Origin: Alphaproteobacteria bacterium
GTDB taxonomy: Bacteria > Pseudomonadota > Alphaproteobacteria > UBA2966
Direction of reading: 5' to 3'
Assembly: GCA_964291395.2 (NCBI GenBank)
Contig: OZ219856.1
Coordinates: forward strand, 96,001 to 160,000
DNA: 64,000 nt
Shown here: positions 1 to 7,777 of the stretch, in pieces
Layout of the letters: every line of letters begins with the position of its first letter
Position numbering within the stretch: the stretch's first letter is position 1
Program-made: the position numbers and the translations under genes
The notes under the pieces: model-generated
Database searches by the model: none
The model's input: the letters and a program-made list of their open reading frames with translations, nothing else
What the model was told of the DNA's origin: nothing

Positions 1-407
1 AACATGAACGGCGGGACGTAGTGGTTCTTGTTGTGGAACTGTCCCAGGCTGGTTTCCCTCGCCTGCCAGATCACGGGGTAGTCGGCCGGTAGGTAGATGG
101 ACCAGTGGTACCACCTCTCGCCGGCATTGATGTTGCTGCCCTGCCTCAGCTCCTTGCGCTCCCTGCGCGTCGAGCAGTCGTCCCAGTCGTACCAGCTGCC
201 GCAATCTCCGGAACGGACCTCGAAGCGCATGGACGTATCGCCGCTACGGACGGGATGCCCGTCTTCCCTGGAGACGACGGCGTAGGCGTACCTCTTGGTG
301 GACGTTCCGCCGTCCCCGAAGGACCAGCCGGAAACGTTGTCGGCGGTGTTGGTCGCCAGGCACCCCACCGCGAGGAACAGGACCGCCGCGATGATCAGTG
401 GCCTCAT
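1..407 (-). CDS. Polysaccharide lyase (heparin lyase I-like) family putative lipoprotein, runs off window edge
   Basis: Not in the ORF track; read manually from ATG 407: MRPLIIAAVLFLAVGC...GHPVRSGDTSMRFEVRSGDC...RERKEL...WYHWSIYLPADYP...LGQFH. Lipobox-like LAVGC; the RFEVR/R-EL/WY-WSIYLP/GQFH pattern is typical of this family. Confidence 0.7.
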   Translation of the reverse strand, partial: MRPLIIAAVLFLAVGCLATNTADNVSGWSFGDGGTSTKRYAYAVVSREDGHPVRSGDTSMRFEVRSGDCGSWYDWDDCSTRRERKELRQGSNINAGERWYHWSIYLPADYPVIWQARETSLGQFHNKNHYVPPFM

Positions 408-470
408 GGTATGCGCTCCCCCTGACCGGCTGGCTCGGGTTTATCGACCGGTTTCCTTGCGCTCACGCCG

Positions 471-521
471 TCCCCATCAGAACAACCTCACGAATCTAAG
501 CTCGCCGCCGGTCCTCTCGTA
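471..521 (-). repeat. Copy 1 of the slam 3' end (YERTGGELRFVRLF*)
   Basis: Minus strand reads TAC GAG AGG ACC GGC GGC GAG CTT AGA TTC GTG AGG TTG TTC TGA TGGGGA; matches 1971-2019 with mostly synonymous changes. Confidence 0.9.
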
Positions 522-573
522 CATTACCGTCAGCAGAGCTTTCGTCATGTTTCCTCTCCACGTAAGCTGGCTC

Positions 574-1347
574 TTAGGCGGACAATGGACGGTTTTCCAA
601 CCACTCTCGTATATCAGCCATAGCCTCTTCTAAATCATCGTGGGTTTCGATAGCCGCGATGCTGTGGACAACTGCTATGTGGATGTCGGGATGATCGCGG
701 TCTATGGGCTTTAGTAGGCTGGCGTGCTTCTTCATCAGACGGTCGATGCAAGTGTCCGCATCGGTGTCCTGATTGTTCGCCTCATACCTAACGAACGCGT
801 CGCGCAAAGCCTTGAGGTCGTGCCGCAGCACGTTTCGCTGACTATATGGATCTTCGTAATCCGGGTTGCACTCTACCTTACCATCCTGCGTGACGCGAAA
901 TGGCCTATCTGGTGGGAGACCGATCGCGTACGCCTTTTGCCAACACTCGCCTCTCCACCATCCCTTCGGTCTCCCATTTATGGCATCCGTAATCGCGACA
1001 GTATCCCGACTCGTGTAATCAACTTGGTTTTCTTTCTTGGCATTCTTTCCGTAGCGCGGTGGGAAGCTCAAGAACGCTTCGAAGGCCCTCATGACGGGCT
1101 CGTCATAGTCTTCGGGGTGGTCCTTGGCGAGCTTGGCCAGCGTTGCGATCGCGGCCGTGCGCGTGACGTAGTTCAAGCTCCCGGGCGTGTTGACATCTTG
1201 GAGTTGCGCCGCCGCCGTTTCGTATTGCTTATGCCTCAGGGTCTTTTCCGCGGACCTCCAAGTCAGAAACGCACCCCTGACGGCGATGAGGGCGGAGATG
1301 ACAGTGGCGATGGGCCATGCCAACTCTATCCAGATCGGGTTCCCCAT
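574..1347 (-). CDS. Hypothetical protein with N-terminal transmembrane helix
   Basis: 257-aa ORF in lower-GC DNA; hydrophobic WIELAWPIATVISALIAVRGAFLTW; its ATG overlaps the TGA of repeat copy 2 (TGATG). Confidence 0.7.
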   Translation of the reverse strand: MGNPIWIELAWPIATVISALIAVRGAFLTWRSAEKTLRHKQYETAAAQLQDVNTPGSLNYVTRTAAIATLAKLAKDHPEDYDEPVMRAFEAFLSFPPRYGKNAKKENQVDYTSRDTVAITDAINGRPKGWWRGECWQKAYAIGLPPDRPFRVTQDGKVECNPDYEDPYSQRNVLRHDLKALRDAFVRYEANNQDTDADTCIDRLMKKHASLLKPIDRDHPDIHIAVVHSIAAIETHDDLEEAMADIREWLENRPLSA

Positions 1348-1388
1348 CAGAACAGCTTCACGAAGCGCAACTCGCCGTCGGTCCGCTC
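1341..1388 (-). repeat. Copy 2 of the slam 3' end (ERTDGELRFVKLF*)
   Basis: Minus strand reads GAG CGG ACC GAC GGC GAG TTG CGC TTC GTG AAG CTG TTC TGA TGGGGA. Confidence 0.9.
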
Positions 1389-1549
1389 AAGGGTGTGGCG
1401 CGGGCAGTGGCTCGCTCATTCACAAGCCAAGGTATCTCCCCACGCCACTCACACGGCCACCGGAGGAGAGCCTCGGAACCCATACCCGAATGACCGCGCG
1501 TCTTGTCCGTCAGAATCCCAGGACAAAATTCACACCTGGGCTCCTCCGT

Positions 1550-1943
1550 TCACTCATCCCGGTCGTCATCACCACGGCGCTTTCTGATGACAATCAGCAT
1601 CGAATGCCCAGGATTATATGGAGATCGTCCGCTTACTTCCATCGCCAGCCCTGACGCGTCTAAGTCACTGGCCAAGGACATTATGTCATTGAACGACGGA
1701 TCGTATGGCTCGGAGGTATACACCAGCTCCCCTTGCGCATCGCGCCACATCCGGGTGTGGTCAAGAACCGGGTAGCCATGCTTTTGACAAAGACAGGCCT
1801 CCCGCCCTCCATTCTTTGAGACATTTCTTCTCCACGATGCTTAGCGAGCAGACCGGTATCTGGCGACCCCTCTGCCGGGCGGGGCGCAAACCATGAAGGT
1901 CAAACATGCGCGCTTCATGCTCCTCATGGTTGTATGTGTTCAT
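1550..1943 (-). pseudogene. Cys/His-rich ~130-aa hypothetical gene split by a +1 frameshift near 1800 (possibly a sequencing error)
   Basis: RBS GGGGAGGAG before ATG 1943; removing one G from GCGGGAG joins ORFs 1761..1943 and 1550..1750 into 131 codons (...KKCLKEWRAEACLCQKHGYPVLDHTRMWRDAQGELVYTSEPY...). Confidence 0.55.
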
Positions 1944-1974
1944 CAGCAGCTACTCCTCCCCTTCGCCACACCCA

Positions 1975-3396
1975 TCAAAACAGTTTCACGAACCTGAGCT
2001 CGCCGCCGGTCCGCTCGTAGTCGTAGAGCTGGGCGTTGGTCTTGCGCACCTCATGCACCAGAGACACCTGGGGGCTGAAGCCCTTCCAGGCCAGCGCCCG
2101 GTTGTGCACCGAGGCGCGGAAGCTGCGGGTCTCGTCCTCGCGCGGCTCGCCGCCCTCGGTGTGCGGGAGCCAGTTGCCCTCGTAGTCGGTGCGGCGCAGC
2201 TCGCCGTTGCCGCCGACGGTGAAGCCCTTGGGCAGCGCCACCGAAACCCCCGCCCGCAGCCAGCGGTAGTCGTGGCGCCAGCGCTCCGCCTCGGTCCGCT
2301 GGCGCCCCCAGCCCAGCCCGGCGTCCGCCCGCACCACAGGCGTCACCACCCAGGCCCCGCTGAGCGAGGCGTCCATGACCGGCCCGTCGAGATGGTCCTG
2401 CACACGGTAGCTGCGCTCGTGCCAAGACGCCCGCGCGTTCGCCGTCAGCCGCCGGGTGAACCGGTGCCCGGCCTCGAGACGGGCCCCGAGGGCGTCGTGG
2501 TCCGGCGCGCCGCCGCTCCAGCGCCGCTGCACGCTCGCCAGCGCGCTCACCTCCGTGTTCCGGCCAATTAGGTGGCGCGGCCCCGCGTGCCCCGACAGAT
2601 GCGTCTGGTCGAACCGTTTTCCCGAGTACTCGCGCCTCGAGACGCTGGCCCCGGTGCGCAGGCGAAGACGATCGCCCAGCGGATACTGATACTCGCCGCC
2701 CGTCCACACCGAGAGGCCGATGCCCGACGTAGTCAGCTCTTCGGCGTCGCGGGTGAACGGCAGCCGCGCGCCGCCGACGTTGATGTAGATGATCCTCTCG
2801 TCCGAGCTTGCGCCGATGTTGGTGTCCGGCGCCAGGGCGAAGCCCGCGTGCAGGTCCCAGCGCCGGCGTGCGCGGATCTCTGCGAGGAAACGGTTAACGT
2901 TGAGGACCACCGGCGCCGGCGGCTTGCCGGCCAGCACCCGCTCGAAATGGCGCCGGGCGAGAGTGTCCTCGCCCTTGAGGAAGAAAGCGCGGGCCAGTTC
3001 CAGCCGGGCGCGTACCAGGCCGGGCCGGATCACTAGCATGCGCCGCAGGGCGGCGATGGCGGCGTCGAGGAAGGCCGCGCGGCTTGCGTCGTCGAGGCCC
3101 TGCCGACTAGCCGCCGCGATGCCGGCCCGGCCGACCAGGAACAGCAGGGTGAGATCGCTGCGGCGGGCTTCGACGGCCGGCCGCAGGATCGCAAGCGCCC
3201 GCACCGGCCGCCCGGCGCGGAGCAATGCCGTGGCCCGGTCGGCGACGGATTGCGGCGCGGCGGGTGTCGATTGGGCCTTCGTTGGCGCCGTCGATTGGGC
3301 CAGGGCCGGCTGCGGGCCGGCGAAGGCCATCGGCAGGGCGATGGCGGCGGCGGCAAGGCAGGCGGCCGGGAGCCGCACGCGCGCGGAGAGGGGCAT
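1975..3396 (-). CDS. Surface lipoprotein assembly modifier (Slam-like; TPR + DUF560-type beta-barrel)
   Basis: Signal peptide; TPR-like RARLELARAFFLKGEDTLARRHFERVL; APDTNI motif at the barrel start; alternating strands; C-terminal Phe (ELRFVKLF); downstream of TbpB-like lipoprotein genes. Start placed at MPLSARV. Confidence 0.85.
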   Translation of the reverse strand: MPLSARVRLPAACLAAAAIALPMAFAGPQPALAQSTAPTKAQSTPAAPQSVADRATALLRAGRPVRALAILRPAVEARRSDLTLLFLVGRAGIAAASRQGLDDASRAAFLDAAIAALRRMLVIRPGLVRARLELARAFFLKGEDTLARRHFERVLAGKPPAPVVLNVNRFLAEIRARRRWDLHAGFALAPDTNIGASSDERIIYINVGGARLPFTRDAEELTTSGIGLSVWTGGEYQYPLGDRLRLRTGASVSRREYSGKRFDQTHLSGHAGPRHLIGRNTEVSALASVQRRWSGGAPDHDALGARLEAGHRFTRRLTANARASWHERSYRVQDHLDGPVMDASLSGAWVVTPVVRADAGLGWGRQRTEAERWRHDYRWLRAGVSVALPKGFTVGGNGELRRTDYEGNWLPHTEGGEPREDETRSFRASVHNRALAWKGFSPQVSLVHEVRKTNAQLYDYERTGGELRFVKLF

Positions 3397-3425: not shown

Positions 3426-3457
3426 GAAAAAGAAGGGCGGCGCGAGCGCCGCCCTTT
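3426..3457 (-). terminator. Intrinsic terminator between the large lipoprotein gene and slam
   Basis: Minus strand AAGGGCGGCG-CTCG-CGCCGCCCTT followed by CTTTTT. Confidence 0.7.
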
Positions 3458-3491: not shown

Positions 3492-5379
3492 TTAGTCCGC
3501 CCGGGTCGCGAAGGCCCCGGCCGCTGCGCCGTCGCCGAAGTTGGCGTCGAACCGACCGTGGAAGCCCGTCGGACGCTGGTTTTGCACCGGCGTAGTCGTA
3601 TCGCCATCGTGGTCGACCGGCGCCGGGCCGTAGCCCTGGGCTGTCCACTCGCCCGCAGCACCGCCACCGGCGGTCGTGCCGTTAGCGTCAAAACCGGCGG
3701 TGGCATTCAGGGCAGTTTCGTTGAGAAGGACAGTCCAGTTCCCGACCGCGCCTCCCTGGAAGTTCGAAACGGATCCGCGCAGCATCGGAGCTACCGCGAA
3801 CGTCGCCGTCAGGTTGACATCGGCGGTGAACTGACCGGAATTGTCGCCACGCTTCGAAATGCCGACGGCCGAGCCGCTGTAGGTCGCGGTGACGTCCTTC
3901 GCGTCATCGCCTTCGCCGGCCTGCCCGAGATCAAGGGTAGTACTTGCGCCCGTGTTGTTCGAGTACAGGGCGATGCCGCTGGCCGCGCCGTCGGTATAGG
4001 TCAGCCAGTAGCCGTAGGTGGCATACATGGTCGCCACCATGTACATTCCCGCCATGTCCGGATTCGCGACGTAGAGTTCCTTCGGCAAAGCCGGCGAGAA
4101 ATACCAGCCGGCGCCCAGCTTGCCGTCCGTCACCTTGCAGCCGTCGGTGCCTCCCAAGCAAATGATCAGCGCCGACAATGCCCTTGTAAGTGCCGGGGGT
4201 AGTACCACCATCAGCGTCGATTGTGCCGTCGGTTAAATTGGTACTGGTCACGGCCGAAGCGGTCATGCCTTCGAGCGACGCCACCGAAACCTCCGCATTG
4301 CCTGCGGTAAGCGCGCCGTCGGCATCGATCGTGCCAAGCCGCTTCTTCGACACCTTGTCCTCACCGGCGATCATGGCCCAGGTCATCGCCCCGATGTCAT
4401 CGGCATCGTTCATGATCCCATCCATGGATGTCGCGTCGCCAATGGTGCCGTTGGTGTCCGGGGCAGCGGTGCCGATGGCCGTCATGACCTCGCCCGCTAT
4501 CCGCTTGCCGATGGCAGAGGGCATCATCGGGTAGTCTTCGGCCAGCTTGTTAGCGCCCTTGACCGCGGCAACCGCATCCCTCAGCGAATCGACTTCCGTG
4601 GTCGGGGTGGTGCCGTCAGCCTGTAGCGGGTTCTTGTCGAGGACCGCCTGGGCCGCCTTTTTCTGGGCTGTCGCCTGCTTGATCGCCTCATCCGCCGCCG
4701 CGATCGCACCTGCGCGTTCCGCGTCATCCTCGGAAAGGGCCTCTGCCGCGGTCTTCGCCGCCATGGCGTCGTTCAGCGCCTCGTCGGCGTCCATGACGGC
4801 CTGGTTCGCGGCCGTCTCCGCATCCAGAATCTTCTGGGCGTTCGCCACGGCCATTGCCGAATCGCCCTTGACCTCCTCTGCGGTGAGCATGCCCGCGTAT
4901 TTGATCGCGTCCTTCTCGGCCTGCTCCGCATCCATGGCGGCTGCGTTCGCGGCCGTAATGGCGTCTGCGGCGTCGGCTTTCAGGCTTTGGGCAGTCGGGG
5001 CCGGCGGCTCGGTCGGAGTCGTCGGAGCCATCGCCTCAGCCACCGAGATGGTGCCCGTGGTCGTGATGGTGCCGTCGTCATTGACCGTGACCGAGCAGGG
5101 ACCCGTATCGCAGGTGAAATCGAGGCCGCCGGCCGTGATCATCGCGCCGGCCGCGAAATCCTGACCCAGATACATGGCGGCCGTATCGTCCTCGGCGAAG
5201 GCGTCGGCCAGGTCTTCGGAAATCGTGTGGGTGCCGGCCATGACCGTCACGCCCATCTGAGCATCGCTCAGGGTGTAATCCGGCTCCGGCGGATCGTCGC
5301 TGCTCGAGCTGCACGCACCGAGGGCGAGACCAAATCCCGCCAGCACAGCGAGTGCCAGATAGGTTGACTTGAATTTCAT
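3492..5379 (-). CDS. Large surface lipoprotein with C-terminal TbpB-like barrel; +1 frameshift near 4168
   Basis: MKFKSTYLALAVLAGFGLALGAC lipobox; Ala-rich helical stalk; the second frame continues IICLGG...ATYSGSAVG...SGQFTADVNLTATF...GFHGRFDANFGDGAAAGAFAT. The span is 1888 nt = 629 codons + 1. Confidence 0.75.
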
Positions 5380-5760
5380 CGGGATCCTCTCCCTCGTTGC
5401 GTGTATATGTGAACGGACCCCTAATAGGTCGGGCCGCTGCAATCGTCAACCGGGGCGGATGAGGTTCCTGCTTTTTCGCCGGAAGCCGGAACGGCTTTCG
5501 AGGCTCTTCTGTTCAGCGGGCAACCCGACCAGAAAGGGAAGCCGGAAACGATTGCAGGTGGATTGTTACGGTCTTCGTCTTTGCCTGTCAACAGGTTTCC
5601 TGACAAAGAAATTTCCGGCTCCCTCCCCCATGGCCGGGCCGCCGCGATCGGCATCCGGCGGCCGGGACGGGTTCCCGGCAAACGGCTCTCGTGTCCGGCA
5701 GGCGACCCGTCCATGGGCAAGGGAGAAGGGTGAAATGTTCGGGAAGCTCCCCCATCCCGT

Positions 5761-6780: not shown

Positions 6781-7163
6781 TAAGTAGGCCCGGACCGGCG
6801 CCGCCGCATGCCGAGCTTATCTCCGATGCCGCGCCGTTGCACGAATCGCCGCCGGCGCGGTCGAAGCGTGCGGCGGCTGACACCGGGAAACCCCTCTGAT
6901 GTGGCTGCGTTCGATCTCTTCAAGACAGATCTCCACGGGGAGCTTGTCGTGGAGCTTCGTGGTCCGCGTCGCGGCGCAACGCGCGGCCGGAGCGGGGATG
7001 GACCGGGGCAGAGTCGGCACGCCAGGTGGGTGTCGCCGGCCGTCCCTCCGGTCGAGGTCCCCGGCCGGCTCCTGGAGGCGGGCGGCCCGCGGCCGTCCCG
7101 CCGCGCCGTTCCGATCGCGGTCGGACCATTGGTCGAGAACCGGACATGGTGCATGTTTGGTGT

Positions 7164-7367
7164 ATGTCACGCACCAACGTGGATATTGACGACGAGGCCT
7201 GTGCGGCGGTCATGGGCCGCTATCGCCTGACAACAAAGCGCGAGGCGATCAACTTCGCGCTTCGAACCCTTGCGGCGGAGCCTCTCGGCATCGACGAGGC
7301 CCGGAACCTTCGCGGAGCGGGTTGGGAAGGCGACCTCGACGACTTGCGAACCGGCCGTACGACGTGA
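7164..7367 (+). CDS. vapB: VapB-family antitoxin
   Basis: [11 protein letters not shown]...[11 protein letters not shown]...[14 protein letters not shown]; stop overlaps the vapC start (GTGA). Confidence 0.85.
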
Positions 7368-7777
7368 TCCTGGTCGATACGTCCGCCTGGGTCGAGTTTC
7401 TTCGCGATACCGGGTCCACGACCTGCGATCGGGTCGAGGCGTCGCTCGGCAGCGAGATCGCGGTGTGCGACGCGATTCTCATGGAAGTGCTGGCCGGCGC
7501 ACGGGACGAGAGGCATCTGCACGACCTCCGCAGGCTGCTGGCACGTGCGACCGTCCTGCCGATGGAACCCAGGCACCATGAAGAGGCCGCGGCCCTGTTT
7601 CGGCTCTGCCGCCGGGAAGGGGAAACCGTCCGAAAGCTGATCGACTGCCTCATCGGCGCCGTCGCCATTCACGCCGATGCACCCGTTCTCCACGCCGATG
7701 GAGATTTCGACGTCCTTGCGCGCCATACGGGCCTGAAAATCGCGGAAGGCAGCAAGGGCGACGCAGGTGCCGATTGA
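7364..7777 (+). CDS. vapC: VapC PIN-domain toxin
   Basis: [13 protein letters not shown]...ILMEVLAG...IDCLIGAVA...VLHADGDF, with the PIN acidic residues. Confidence 0.9.

Follow-up and report, generated by a model that had tools for sequence, protein, structure and literature searches.

Orphan copies of a Slam gene 3′ end behind an intact Slam gene in an uncultured alphaproteobacterium, probable scars of a decayed multi-Slam array

Organization of the Slam locus

The window considered here, a stretch of 64,000 nucleotides (nt) at C1:96001-160000 of an alphaproteobacterial genome (G000; three contigs, C1 to C3; 4.16 Mb; 64% guanine plus cytosine, GC), begins with a locus encoding a Slam protein, the outer-membrane component of type 11 secretion. 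Behind the intact Slam gene, two short copies of its own 3′ end, called here the orphan tails T2 and T1, are interleaved with other genes. The minus strand carries every feature of this locus, listed below in the 5′ to 3′ order of that strand (lengths of proteins in amino acids, aa; ORF, open reading frame).

3492..5382, minus strand: candidate Slam cargo lipoprotein gene in two overlapping frames (3931-5382 and 3492-4211), with a lipobox and homologues that are Slam-adjacent elsewhere
3433..3456, minus strand: hairpin resembling a terminator, located in the gap separating Slam from the lipoprotein gene upstream of it, from a consensus scan only (2 sites against 2.8 expected)
1975..3396, minus strand: intact Slam gene, 473 aa, matching PF04575 (SlipAM) over profile positions 1-288 of 288
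1975-2019, minus strand: tail T3, the last 14 codons and stop of the intact Slam gene, with TGATGGG at its end
1943..1975, minus strand: 10-codon mini-ORF (MGVAKGRSSC), its ATG overlapping the Slam TGA and its TGA overlapping the ATG of X_a
1550..1943, minus strand: low-GC insert 1 ("gene X"), defined from translations as a Cys/His-rich 60-aa ORF, X_a (1761-1943), and a 96-aa frame (1550-1840), with 54-60% GC
1389..1549, minus strand: spacer upstream of T2, with no assigned similarity
1341..1388, minus strand: orphan tail T2, with 13 Slam codons (1350-1388), a stop (1347-1349) and post-stop TGGGGA
574..1347, minus strand: low-GC insert 2, a gene whose ATG overlaps the T2 TGA and whose product, of 257 aa, has a membrane helix at the N-terminus
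25 nt, minus strand: spacer between the 257-aa gene and the lipoprotein start
522..558, minus strand: remnant of a surface-lipoprotein gene start, with Shine-Dalgarno GGAGAGG (552-558), ATG (546-548) and nine codons (MTKALLTVM), assigned by similarity to C2:1661-1690
461..521, minus strand: orphan tail T1, with 14 Slam codons (480-521), a stop (477-479) and about 16 post-stop nt
1..407, continuing to C1:95586, minus strand: 5′ part of a polysaccharide-lyase-family lipoprotein gene (PF14099), 273 aa

The Slam protein matches PF04575 with 92.8 bits (E = 3.5e-26, cut-off 22; 94.5 bits in the whole-genome search), and its N-terminal TPR region (residues 52-160) matches TPR_19 with 26.5 bits (cut-off 25) and TPR_14 with 25.3 bits (cut-off 23.5). 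Only two PF04575 genes are present in this genome, the C1 Slam and a second one on contig C2, and orphan tails are found beside the C1 Slam only. The C2 Slam (L084, C2:1805-3191, minus strand) is located at the very start of this 196-kb contig and matches in two pieces in different frames, meeting near C2:2733. The gene behind it encodes a lipoprotein of 516 aa, and it is the start of this gene that recurs in front of T1 (see below).

The tails translate as YERTGGELRFVKLF* (T3, Slam), ERTDGELRFVKLF* (T2) and YERTGGELRFVRLF* (T1). The sequence-only reading had reported Slam-tail repeats at 1341-1388 and 471-521 in the same orientation as the gene, and both were recovered by repeat search, blastn, profile and six-frame scan. 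The repeat finder retrieved three co-oriented copies (473-543, 1343-1413 and 1971-2041), spaced by 870 and 628 nt, and blastn against the own genome gave 85.7% identity over 49 nt for T3-T1 (E = 7.8e-8), 84.8% over 46 nt for T3-T2 (E = 3.3e-6) and 83.3% over 48 nt for T2-T1 (E = 3.3e-6). A profile built from 63 foreign tails detected the C2 Slam end (E = 1.4e-16), T3 (7e-15), T2 (7.1e-8 with nhmmer) and T1 (3.2e-7 with nhmmer), the next match having an E-value of 0.45; T1 and T2 both align to profile positions 19-63. The six-frame scan, allowing up to four substitutions, returned only T1, T2, T3 and the C2 Slam end, and a degenerate DNA pattern had four matches in the genome, its backward-read control having none in 41 genomes. 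With four copies only in the whole genome by scan, pattern and profile, the array does not continue to the left of the window, as had been considered. The proposed search of the contig and its relatives yielded these four copies and tails in foreign loci, and it failed in 40 relatives when a narrower pattern, which missed CGN arginine codons, was used (0 matches).

Collapsed strain variants or stitched paralogues could also produce such repeats, and the assembly is of metagenome type, with an estimated contamination of 9% and several frame-split genes. Nevertheless, a 1842-nt Logan contig of sequencing run X1 spans positions 200-2041, with all three tails inside, 0 differences and no joint between repeats, and the three copies are divergent enough to have unique 31-mers; X1 is possibly the source sample, so its support is not independent. 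These observations speak against the strain collapse that the sequence-only reading had foreseen as an objection, and we regard an assembly artefact as exceedingly improbable. No repeat-to-repeat joint is listed for X1 at the contig level, where rare deletions or circles are below reach, and the matches in the low-share runs X2-X4 are confined to Slam-like parts.

Divergence and origin of the orphan tails

Compared with T3, T1 and T2 each show seven changes in 39 coding nucleotides and a single change in 13 residues, in line with the mostly synonymous differences noted earlier from the sequence. The proportions of synonymous and nonsynonymous differences (pS/pN) are 0.63/0.034 for T3-T1 and 0.41/0.10 for T3-T2, compared with 0.50/0.034 between the tails of the two full Slam genes (T3-C2), and the synonymous excess has P-values of 0.0012 (T3-T1) and 0.069 (T3-T2) on tiny samples. 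Since they differ mainly at synonymous sites, the tails would come from distinct, once-functional Slam paralogues. The sequence-only reading had similarly proposed different functional alleles, and pS well above pN, with a divergence like that of the two full genes, agrees in direction with the orphans being ends of separate Slam genes that diverged while functional, instead of decayed copies of T3. The possibility that T1 arose when a unit of tail, spacer and lipoprotein start was duplicated in tandem was rejected, since T1 and T2 are 17% diverged, mostly at synonymous sites.

Both orphans and both resident Slam genes carry an ERT[GD]G signature. Among about 65 foreign Slam ends retrieved with the DNA pattern, this signature is present in the metagenome contig L085 only, and the closest other Slam subtype has K-R-T-G-G. 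Because the signature is shared with the resident genes, the parents of the orphans appear to be paralogues of these genes and not tails from diverse donors.

This has consequences for a model of serial displacement, in which incoming Slam 3′ DNA with a new gene recombines in the Slam body, an illegitimate joint forms near the end and the old tail, with the gene behind it, is pushed downstream, in analogy to the orphan modules of Rhs/CDI loci. Such a process would yield the exact order observed, an intact gene and then orphans, each with a different following gene, with tails from different alleles and inserts of low-GC foreign DNA. In addition, the C1 and C2 Slam genes agree at 90-93% over their last approximately 140 nt, compared with 66-79% mid-barrel, while L068 is the nearest relative elsewhere; this suggests exchange at Slam 3′ ends. 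The membership of the orphans in this genome's own Slam subtype argues against the diverse donors of this model, and the homology that exists today (45 nt at 83-86%, with no identical run above 14 nt) does not suffice, in length or in similarity, for further switching. The identity between the C1 and C2 genes is mosaic, reaching 90-98% in two stretches of about 100 nt (window positions 1993-2112, including the 3′ end, and 2743-2832) and 66-79% elsewhere, a pattern that suggests gene conversion between the paralogues.

The T1 junction

The 30 nt preceding T1 (521-550) match C2:1661-1690 at 86.7% with an exact run of 17 nt, and seven of nine residues and the Shine-Dalgarno sequence agree. This C2 segment is the start region of the lipoprotein gene 3′ of the C2 Slam (MSKILLTVMCVLALGLGACGG), homologues of which are found directly downstream of Slam in L063, L073, L075 and L070. 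The whole-genome E-value of the match is just 0.073; yet it is the best match of the segment and falls on the gene adjoining the only other Slam. The lipoprotein start and T1 are directly joined in a chimeric 23-codon ORF (477-548). Because the junction matches the start of the gene that follows the C2 Slam, T1 is, to judge by this similarity, a deletion junction in which a gene start was joined to codon -14 of another Slam. A remnant upstream of a tail, of the kind that the sequence-only reading had named as speaking against its own proposal of a capture site, is present here as the Shine-Dalgarno sequence and nine lipoprotein codons.

A sequence extending beyond the stop, TGATGGGGA, is common to T1 and T2, and the first two codons of the 257-aa gene are within it. 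The start and second codon of this gene therefore probably derive from the relic and not from the incoming gene. After its stop, T1 has GACGGCGTGAGC, which is similar to the sequence flanking the tails in L032, L055 and L064.

Genes between and behind the tails

The earlier description of a different gene behind each tail holds for the 257-aa ORF, with its ATG overlapping the T2 TGA, and for the lyase-like lipoprotein, while the Cys/His-rich ORF has no family and looks frame-broken. The region of insert 1 (approximately 1389-1943) has 54-62% GC and the 257-aa gene 53-61%, the latter with a GC content at third codon positions (GC3) of 0.68 compared with 0.84-0.93 in neighboring genes. Judged by this composition (53-60% GC, against 68-78% in Slam and 64% genome-wide) and by the distribution of the 257-aa gene described below, the low-GC inserts are foreign DNA.

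The 96-aa frame of gene X overlaps the 3′ part of the 60-aa ORF in another frame, and gene X is probably frame-broken or spurious. Its pieces belong to no Pfam, NCBIfam, PHROG or PADLOC family, a word-index search of the 96-aa frame (near lengths only, the 60-aa ORF not included) found no homologue, and a comparison of 1389-1975 with all genes of the foreign loci gave nothing convincing. The stop-start overlaps of the Slam TGA with the mini-ORF ATG and of the mini-ORF TGA with the X_a ATG form a chain (1943-1977, minus strand), with a Shine-Dalgarno-like GGAGGAG about 10 nt upstream of the X_a start.

The 257-aa protein also lacks a Pfam, NCBIfam, PHROG or PADLOC family and has only an unnamed cluster in the ESM Atlas. 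Its 25 homologues are all metagenomic and align over residues 1-168, with different N-termini. None of the order's 22 other genomes contains the gene, and it has only weak matches in four of 400 other genomes sampled from the class (best E = 3.4e-13, 29% identity), a weak match in the unpublished genome G261 being set aside in all conclusions; 464 pattern matches in JGI metagenomes gave no confirmed relative. The lyase protein matches PF14099 (Polysacc_lyase) with 102 bits (E = 4.3e-29). Its gene has its own Shine-Dalgarno sequence, starts 69 nt past the T1 stop and is native-like in GC3 (0.88); within the genus a homologue is found in G005 only, where it does not adjoin Slam. A comparison of gene content downstream of foreign Slam loci, as had been suggested, showed that none of the three genes (257-aa gene, gene X and lyase gene) is Slam-linked in any of 69 loci, which also weighs against serial displacement.

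Site-specific integration, with the tail as an attachment (att)-like site and the inserts as small integrated cassettes, would account for co-oriented repeats of nearly equal extent, and an integrase fragment is indeed found 106 nt after one Slam of genome G028 (L046). That integrase is itself broken up by transposase genes. In the genome studied here, the nearest tyrosine recombinase gene (PF00589) on the contig is 860 kb off, the six genomic matches being at C1:959148 or further, or on C3, and none of 21 scanned neighbor ORFs, which include toxin-antitoxin genes, a porin and lipoproteins, encodes a recombinase. Runs identical in all three copies reach only 7 nt (TTCGTGA, TGATGGG), and pairwise runs at most 14 nt; synonymous sites vary, as they do freely across the 63 foreign tails, leaving no conserved nucleotide core. 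The orphans begin at codon -14 (T1) and codon -13 (T2), 2-3 nt apart, no hairpin was found, and no GTTRRRY core was seen by eye at the tails. Site-specific integration is therefore highly improbable.

For homologous switching or RecA recombination, 45-49 nt at 83-86% identity, with exact runs of at most 14 nt, are too little. The proposal of the sequence-only reading, that the Slam 3′ end is a reiterated capture site, is thus unsupported, given the remnant at T1, the lack of a nearby recombinase and of a long identical run, the absence of Slam linkage in the 69 foreign loci and the resident ERT[GD]G signature. In a broader form, a Slam end with an overlapping start codon would be a reusable expression slot in uncultured Alphaproteobacteria, to which recombination at the Slam 3′ end repeatedly adds new genes, some of them foreign and fused in frame at TGATG, old tails remaining as footprints. 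We find this doubtful. If true, the array would record successive captures, through which a surface-display operon would come to control new membrane or surface proteins.

Slam ends in related uncultured Alphaproteobacteria

With the tail pattern widened to include CGN arginine codons, which has a detection floor of 10 codons, 51 stretches were found in species-representative genomes and 20 in metagenomes, six of the latter (L090, L091, L092, L094, L095 and L104) being judged chance matches. By title, nearly all tail-bearing records are from uncultured Alphaproteobacteria (Candidatus Poriferihabitaceae, Defluviicoccus, Rhodospirillales). The 75 distinct foreign Slam tails comprise 58 full-length genes, 12 truncated genes and five cut by a contig end, so that truncated genes account for about one in six of the Slam ends examined. 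Several of the truncated copies have transposase and relaxase genes as neighbors.

Five of the 12 truncated ends are short. The one in L029 has 21 codons and is solitary, and those in L101 and L096 have about 27 and 40 codons, respectively. In L070, a 16-codon tail is joined, though not in frame, to a gene start that resembles a signal peptide, and it is followed by a paralogue of the small gene behind the full Slam of this locus. In L099, the full Slam is followed by about 30 nt of a small-gene start, a 25-codon orphan tail, which belongs to a different Slam type and lies 185 nt downstream of the Slam, and at once a membrane-protein gene; this arrangement is in line with a scar of the T1 kind and with serial displacement alike. 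Multi-Slam loci are also present: co-oriented Slam genes are 1.4-15 kb apart in L032, L042, L075, L097, L107 and L108, and one foreign contig has four full copies within 78 kb. Together, the multi-Slam loci and the truncated ends show that both the building blocks and the products of the history proposed below are found in relatives.

Two co-oriented truncated Slam ends, 1.7 kb apart, are located in L074 (5674-6030 and 7100-7712, plus strand). They share the post-stop sequence TGATGG.GGAC with T1, T2 and L025, and the second has a one-base insertion at its stop.

At least 10 foreign loci have a conserved gene of about 63 aa whose start falls at -1 to +13 nt relative to the stop of Slam, and the Slam end therefore normally holds a start region. 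This gene is found at L050:6041-6229 (plus strand) and in the same post-Slam position in L027, L040, L053, L058, L062, L065, L071, L072 and L075, sometimes with a TGATG overlap. Its product begins with M[QP]RPPDL.ERVARIEE.MATR, resembles a coiled coil in its middle part and carries a membrane helix at the C-terminus; it has no Pfam match over the cut-off and is absent from G000. From its position, it may be an undescribed Slam partner in this group.

Proposed history of the locus

In our view, T1 and T2 are probably non-functional scars, the ends of two lost Slam paralogues from a co-oriented multi-Slam array into which foreign DNA was inserted. Two further Slam paralogues would once have stood in a co-oriented array with the intact Slam. 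Deletions, partly coupled to the insertion of low-GC foreign DNA, would have removed Slam bodies and cargo genes, and one of them would have joined codon 9 of the lipoprotein gene downstream of a Slam to codon -14 of the next Slam, giving rise to T1. The short ends would have been kept as they abut the start regions of the genes behind, and the foreign 257-aa gene would begin at the ATG overlapping the old Slam stop (TGATG), inheriting a ready-made start. The start region at the Slam end is the likeliest reason for both the survival of such short ends and the fixation of a foreign ORF there. The repeats, their mainly synonymous divergence, the chimeric T1 junction, the low GC and foreign distribution of the inserts and the truncated Slam ends of relatives are observed directly, while the ancestral tandem arrangement, the succession of events, transcription together with Slam from its promoter and the inertness of the tails are parts of this history that we infer.

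Several observations weigh against it. No relative with an intact ancestral array at the same site was found, so the tandem ancestry is deduced indirectly. The spacer at 1389-1549, where the partner sequence of T2 would be expected, shows no similarity to Slam, lipoprotein genes or foreign loci. Both orphans begin within 2-3 nt of each other, which independent deletions do not predict; this coincidence is softened, not removed, by the spread of remnant lengths elsewhere (about 16, 21, 25, 27 and 40 codons, and longer open frames) together with the 10-codon floor of the pattern. No other locus examined had two short, stacked tails alternating with single genes. Finally, neither orphan shows a clear post-truncation defect, the G-to-D change of T2 being at a position variable among family members and the R of T1 being the family majority residue, and the scars must therefore be recent or maintained.

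Maintenance for function would mean that the tails serve as translation-initiation regions or as short upstream ORFs coupling the downstream gene via TGATG, with the 23-codon ORF of T1 and the ATG at T2 in use. The small gene that starts at the Slam stop in foreign loci, the overlapping ATG of the 257-aa gene, the presence of TGATGGGGA past the stop in both T1 and T2, the Shine-Dalgarno sequence and ATG of T1 itself and the lack of residue changes at conserved positions in either orphan all point in this direction. In contrast, T2 has no in-frame start codon between the upstream stop and its Slam-derived part, which makes classic coupling impossible there, and the lyase gene, at its distance from T1, has a Shine-Dalgarno sequence of its own. 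In addition, folding of the tail RNAs does not differ significantly from that of shuffled sequences (z-scores +0.84, +0.36, -1.41 and +1.65). A maintained function is accordingly improbable.

Serial displacement leads to an end state identical to that of deletion from a multi-Slam array, and nothing specific speaks in its favor. Considering this together with the subtype of the orphans and the genes behind them, we consider it conceivable but unlikely.

With decay of a multi-Slam array as the preferred explanation, the locus is an instance of the fast turnover of Slam/type 11 secretion loci in uncultured Alphaproteobacteria. On this reading, the course of the turnover is visible in its scars, with gene starts joined to Slam ends and a foreign gene grafted onto a start codon that it inherited. 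The locus reveals no new mechanism; a true capture site would have meant that secretion operons recruit genes in a manner not described before. Caution is called for in neighborhood-based cargo inference, as the genes that follow this Slam are not its cargo, and relics of 40-60 nt and mini-ORFs, otherwise invisible or miscalled, are of value for annotation.

Comparison with known systems

In the polymorphic-toxin loci of the Rhs and CdiA types, a full gene is followed by co-oriented orphan modules that keep a conserved piece, each with different downstream content. The sequence-only reading had drawn this parallel, and the Slam tails are similarly arranged but differ in several respects: what is conserved is only the terminal part of the gene, toxin and immunity domains are lacking (neither the 257-aa protein nor gene X has a family, and the third gene encodes a lyase lipoprotein), and the homology is far too short for switching. 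Integrative elements are bordered by duplicated 3′ ends of tRNA or protein genes, their att sites. Direct 3′-end repeats flank foreign DNA in both cases; however, the Slam locus has no integrase beside it, no conserved core and no identical boundaries, and its inserts are of 0.6-0.9 kb. Similarly, no attC-like imperfect hairpin of the integron kind was found.

The locus shares with described Slam/type 11 secretion loci, such as Neisseria Slam1-TbpB, the N-terminal TPR region, the DUF560/SlipAM barrel and adjacent lipoprotein genes, which here are candidate cargo genes (Hooda et al., 2017, PMC5449769; Grossman et al., 2021, PMC8406197). Unlike those loci, this one has, behind the exporter gene, two orphan copies of that gene's 3′ end as well as foreign genes that do not resemble cargo. 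The text searched in both papers contains no mention of gene fragments or orphan ends. Another study (PMC12282271) mentions, in the passages seen, DUF560 pseudogenes and fragments in databases as a bias to avoid; these are likewise truncated type 11 secretion outer-membrane genes, and those passages do not describe stacked 3′ relics or fusions to gene starts. A search of the full-text literature, supplements being outside its scope, found no description of orphan Slam ends.

Upstream lipoprotein gene and genomic neighborhood

The lipobox ORFs upstream of Slam have homologues that are Slam-adjacent in many foreign loci; the ORFs themselves match no Pfam cargo domain. In L036, L059, L057, L055 and L063, these homologues are single proteins of 568-841 aa adjoining Slam, which align to the two frames found here. 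The split gene is either a broken gene or the result of an indel error in the assembly.

A consensus promoter scan of the locus gave no sites, and no terminator was predicted by the consensus scan in the interval from Slam to the lyase gene. A distant blastn search of a plasmid collection with positions 380-1975 returned no match. The neighborhood (window 7026-7777, plus strand, and L083, C1:76001-96000) is rich in toxin-antitoxin genes, with VapB/VapC (PIN), AbiEii, a FitA-like antitoxin, SocA/Panacea and an HTH antitoxin, and also holds a gene for a subtilase of 1309 aa. Such content is typical of accessory regions prone to exchange.

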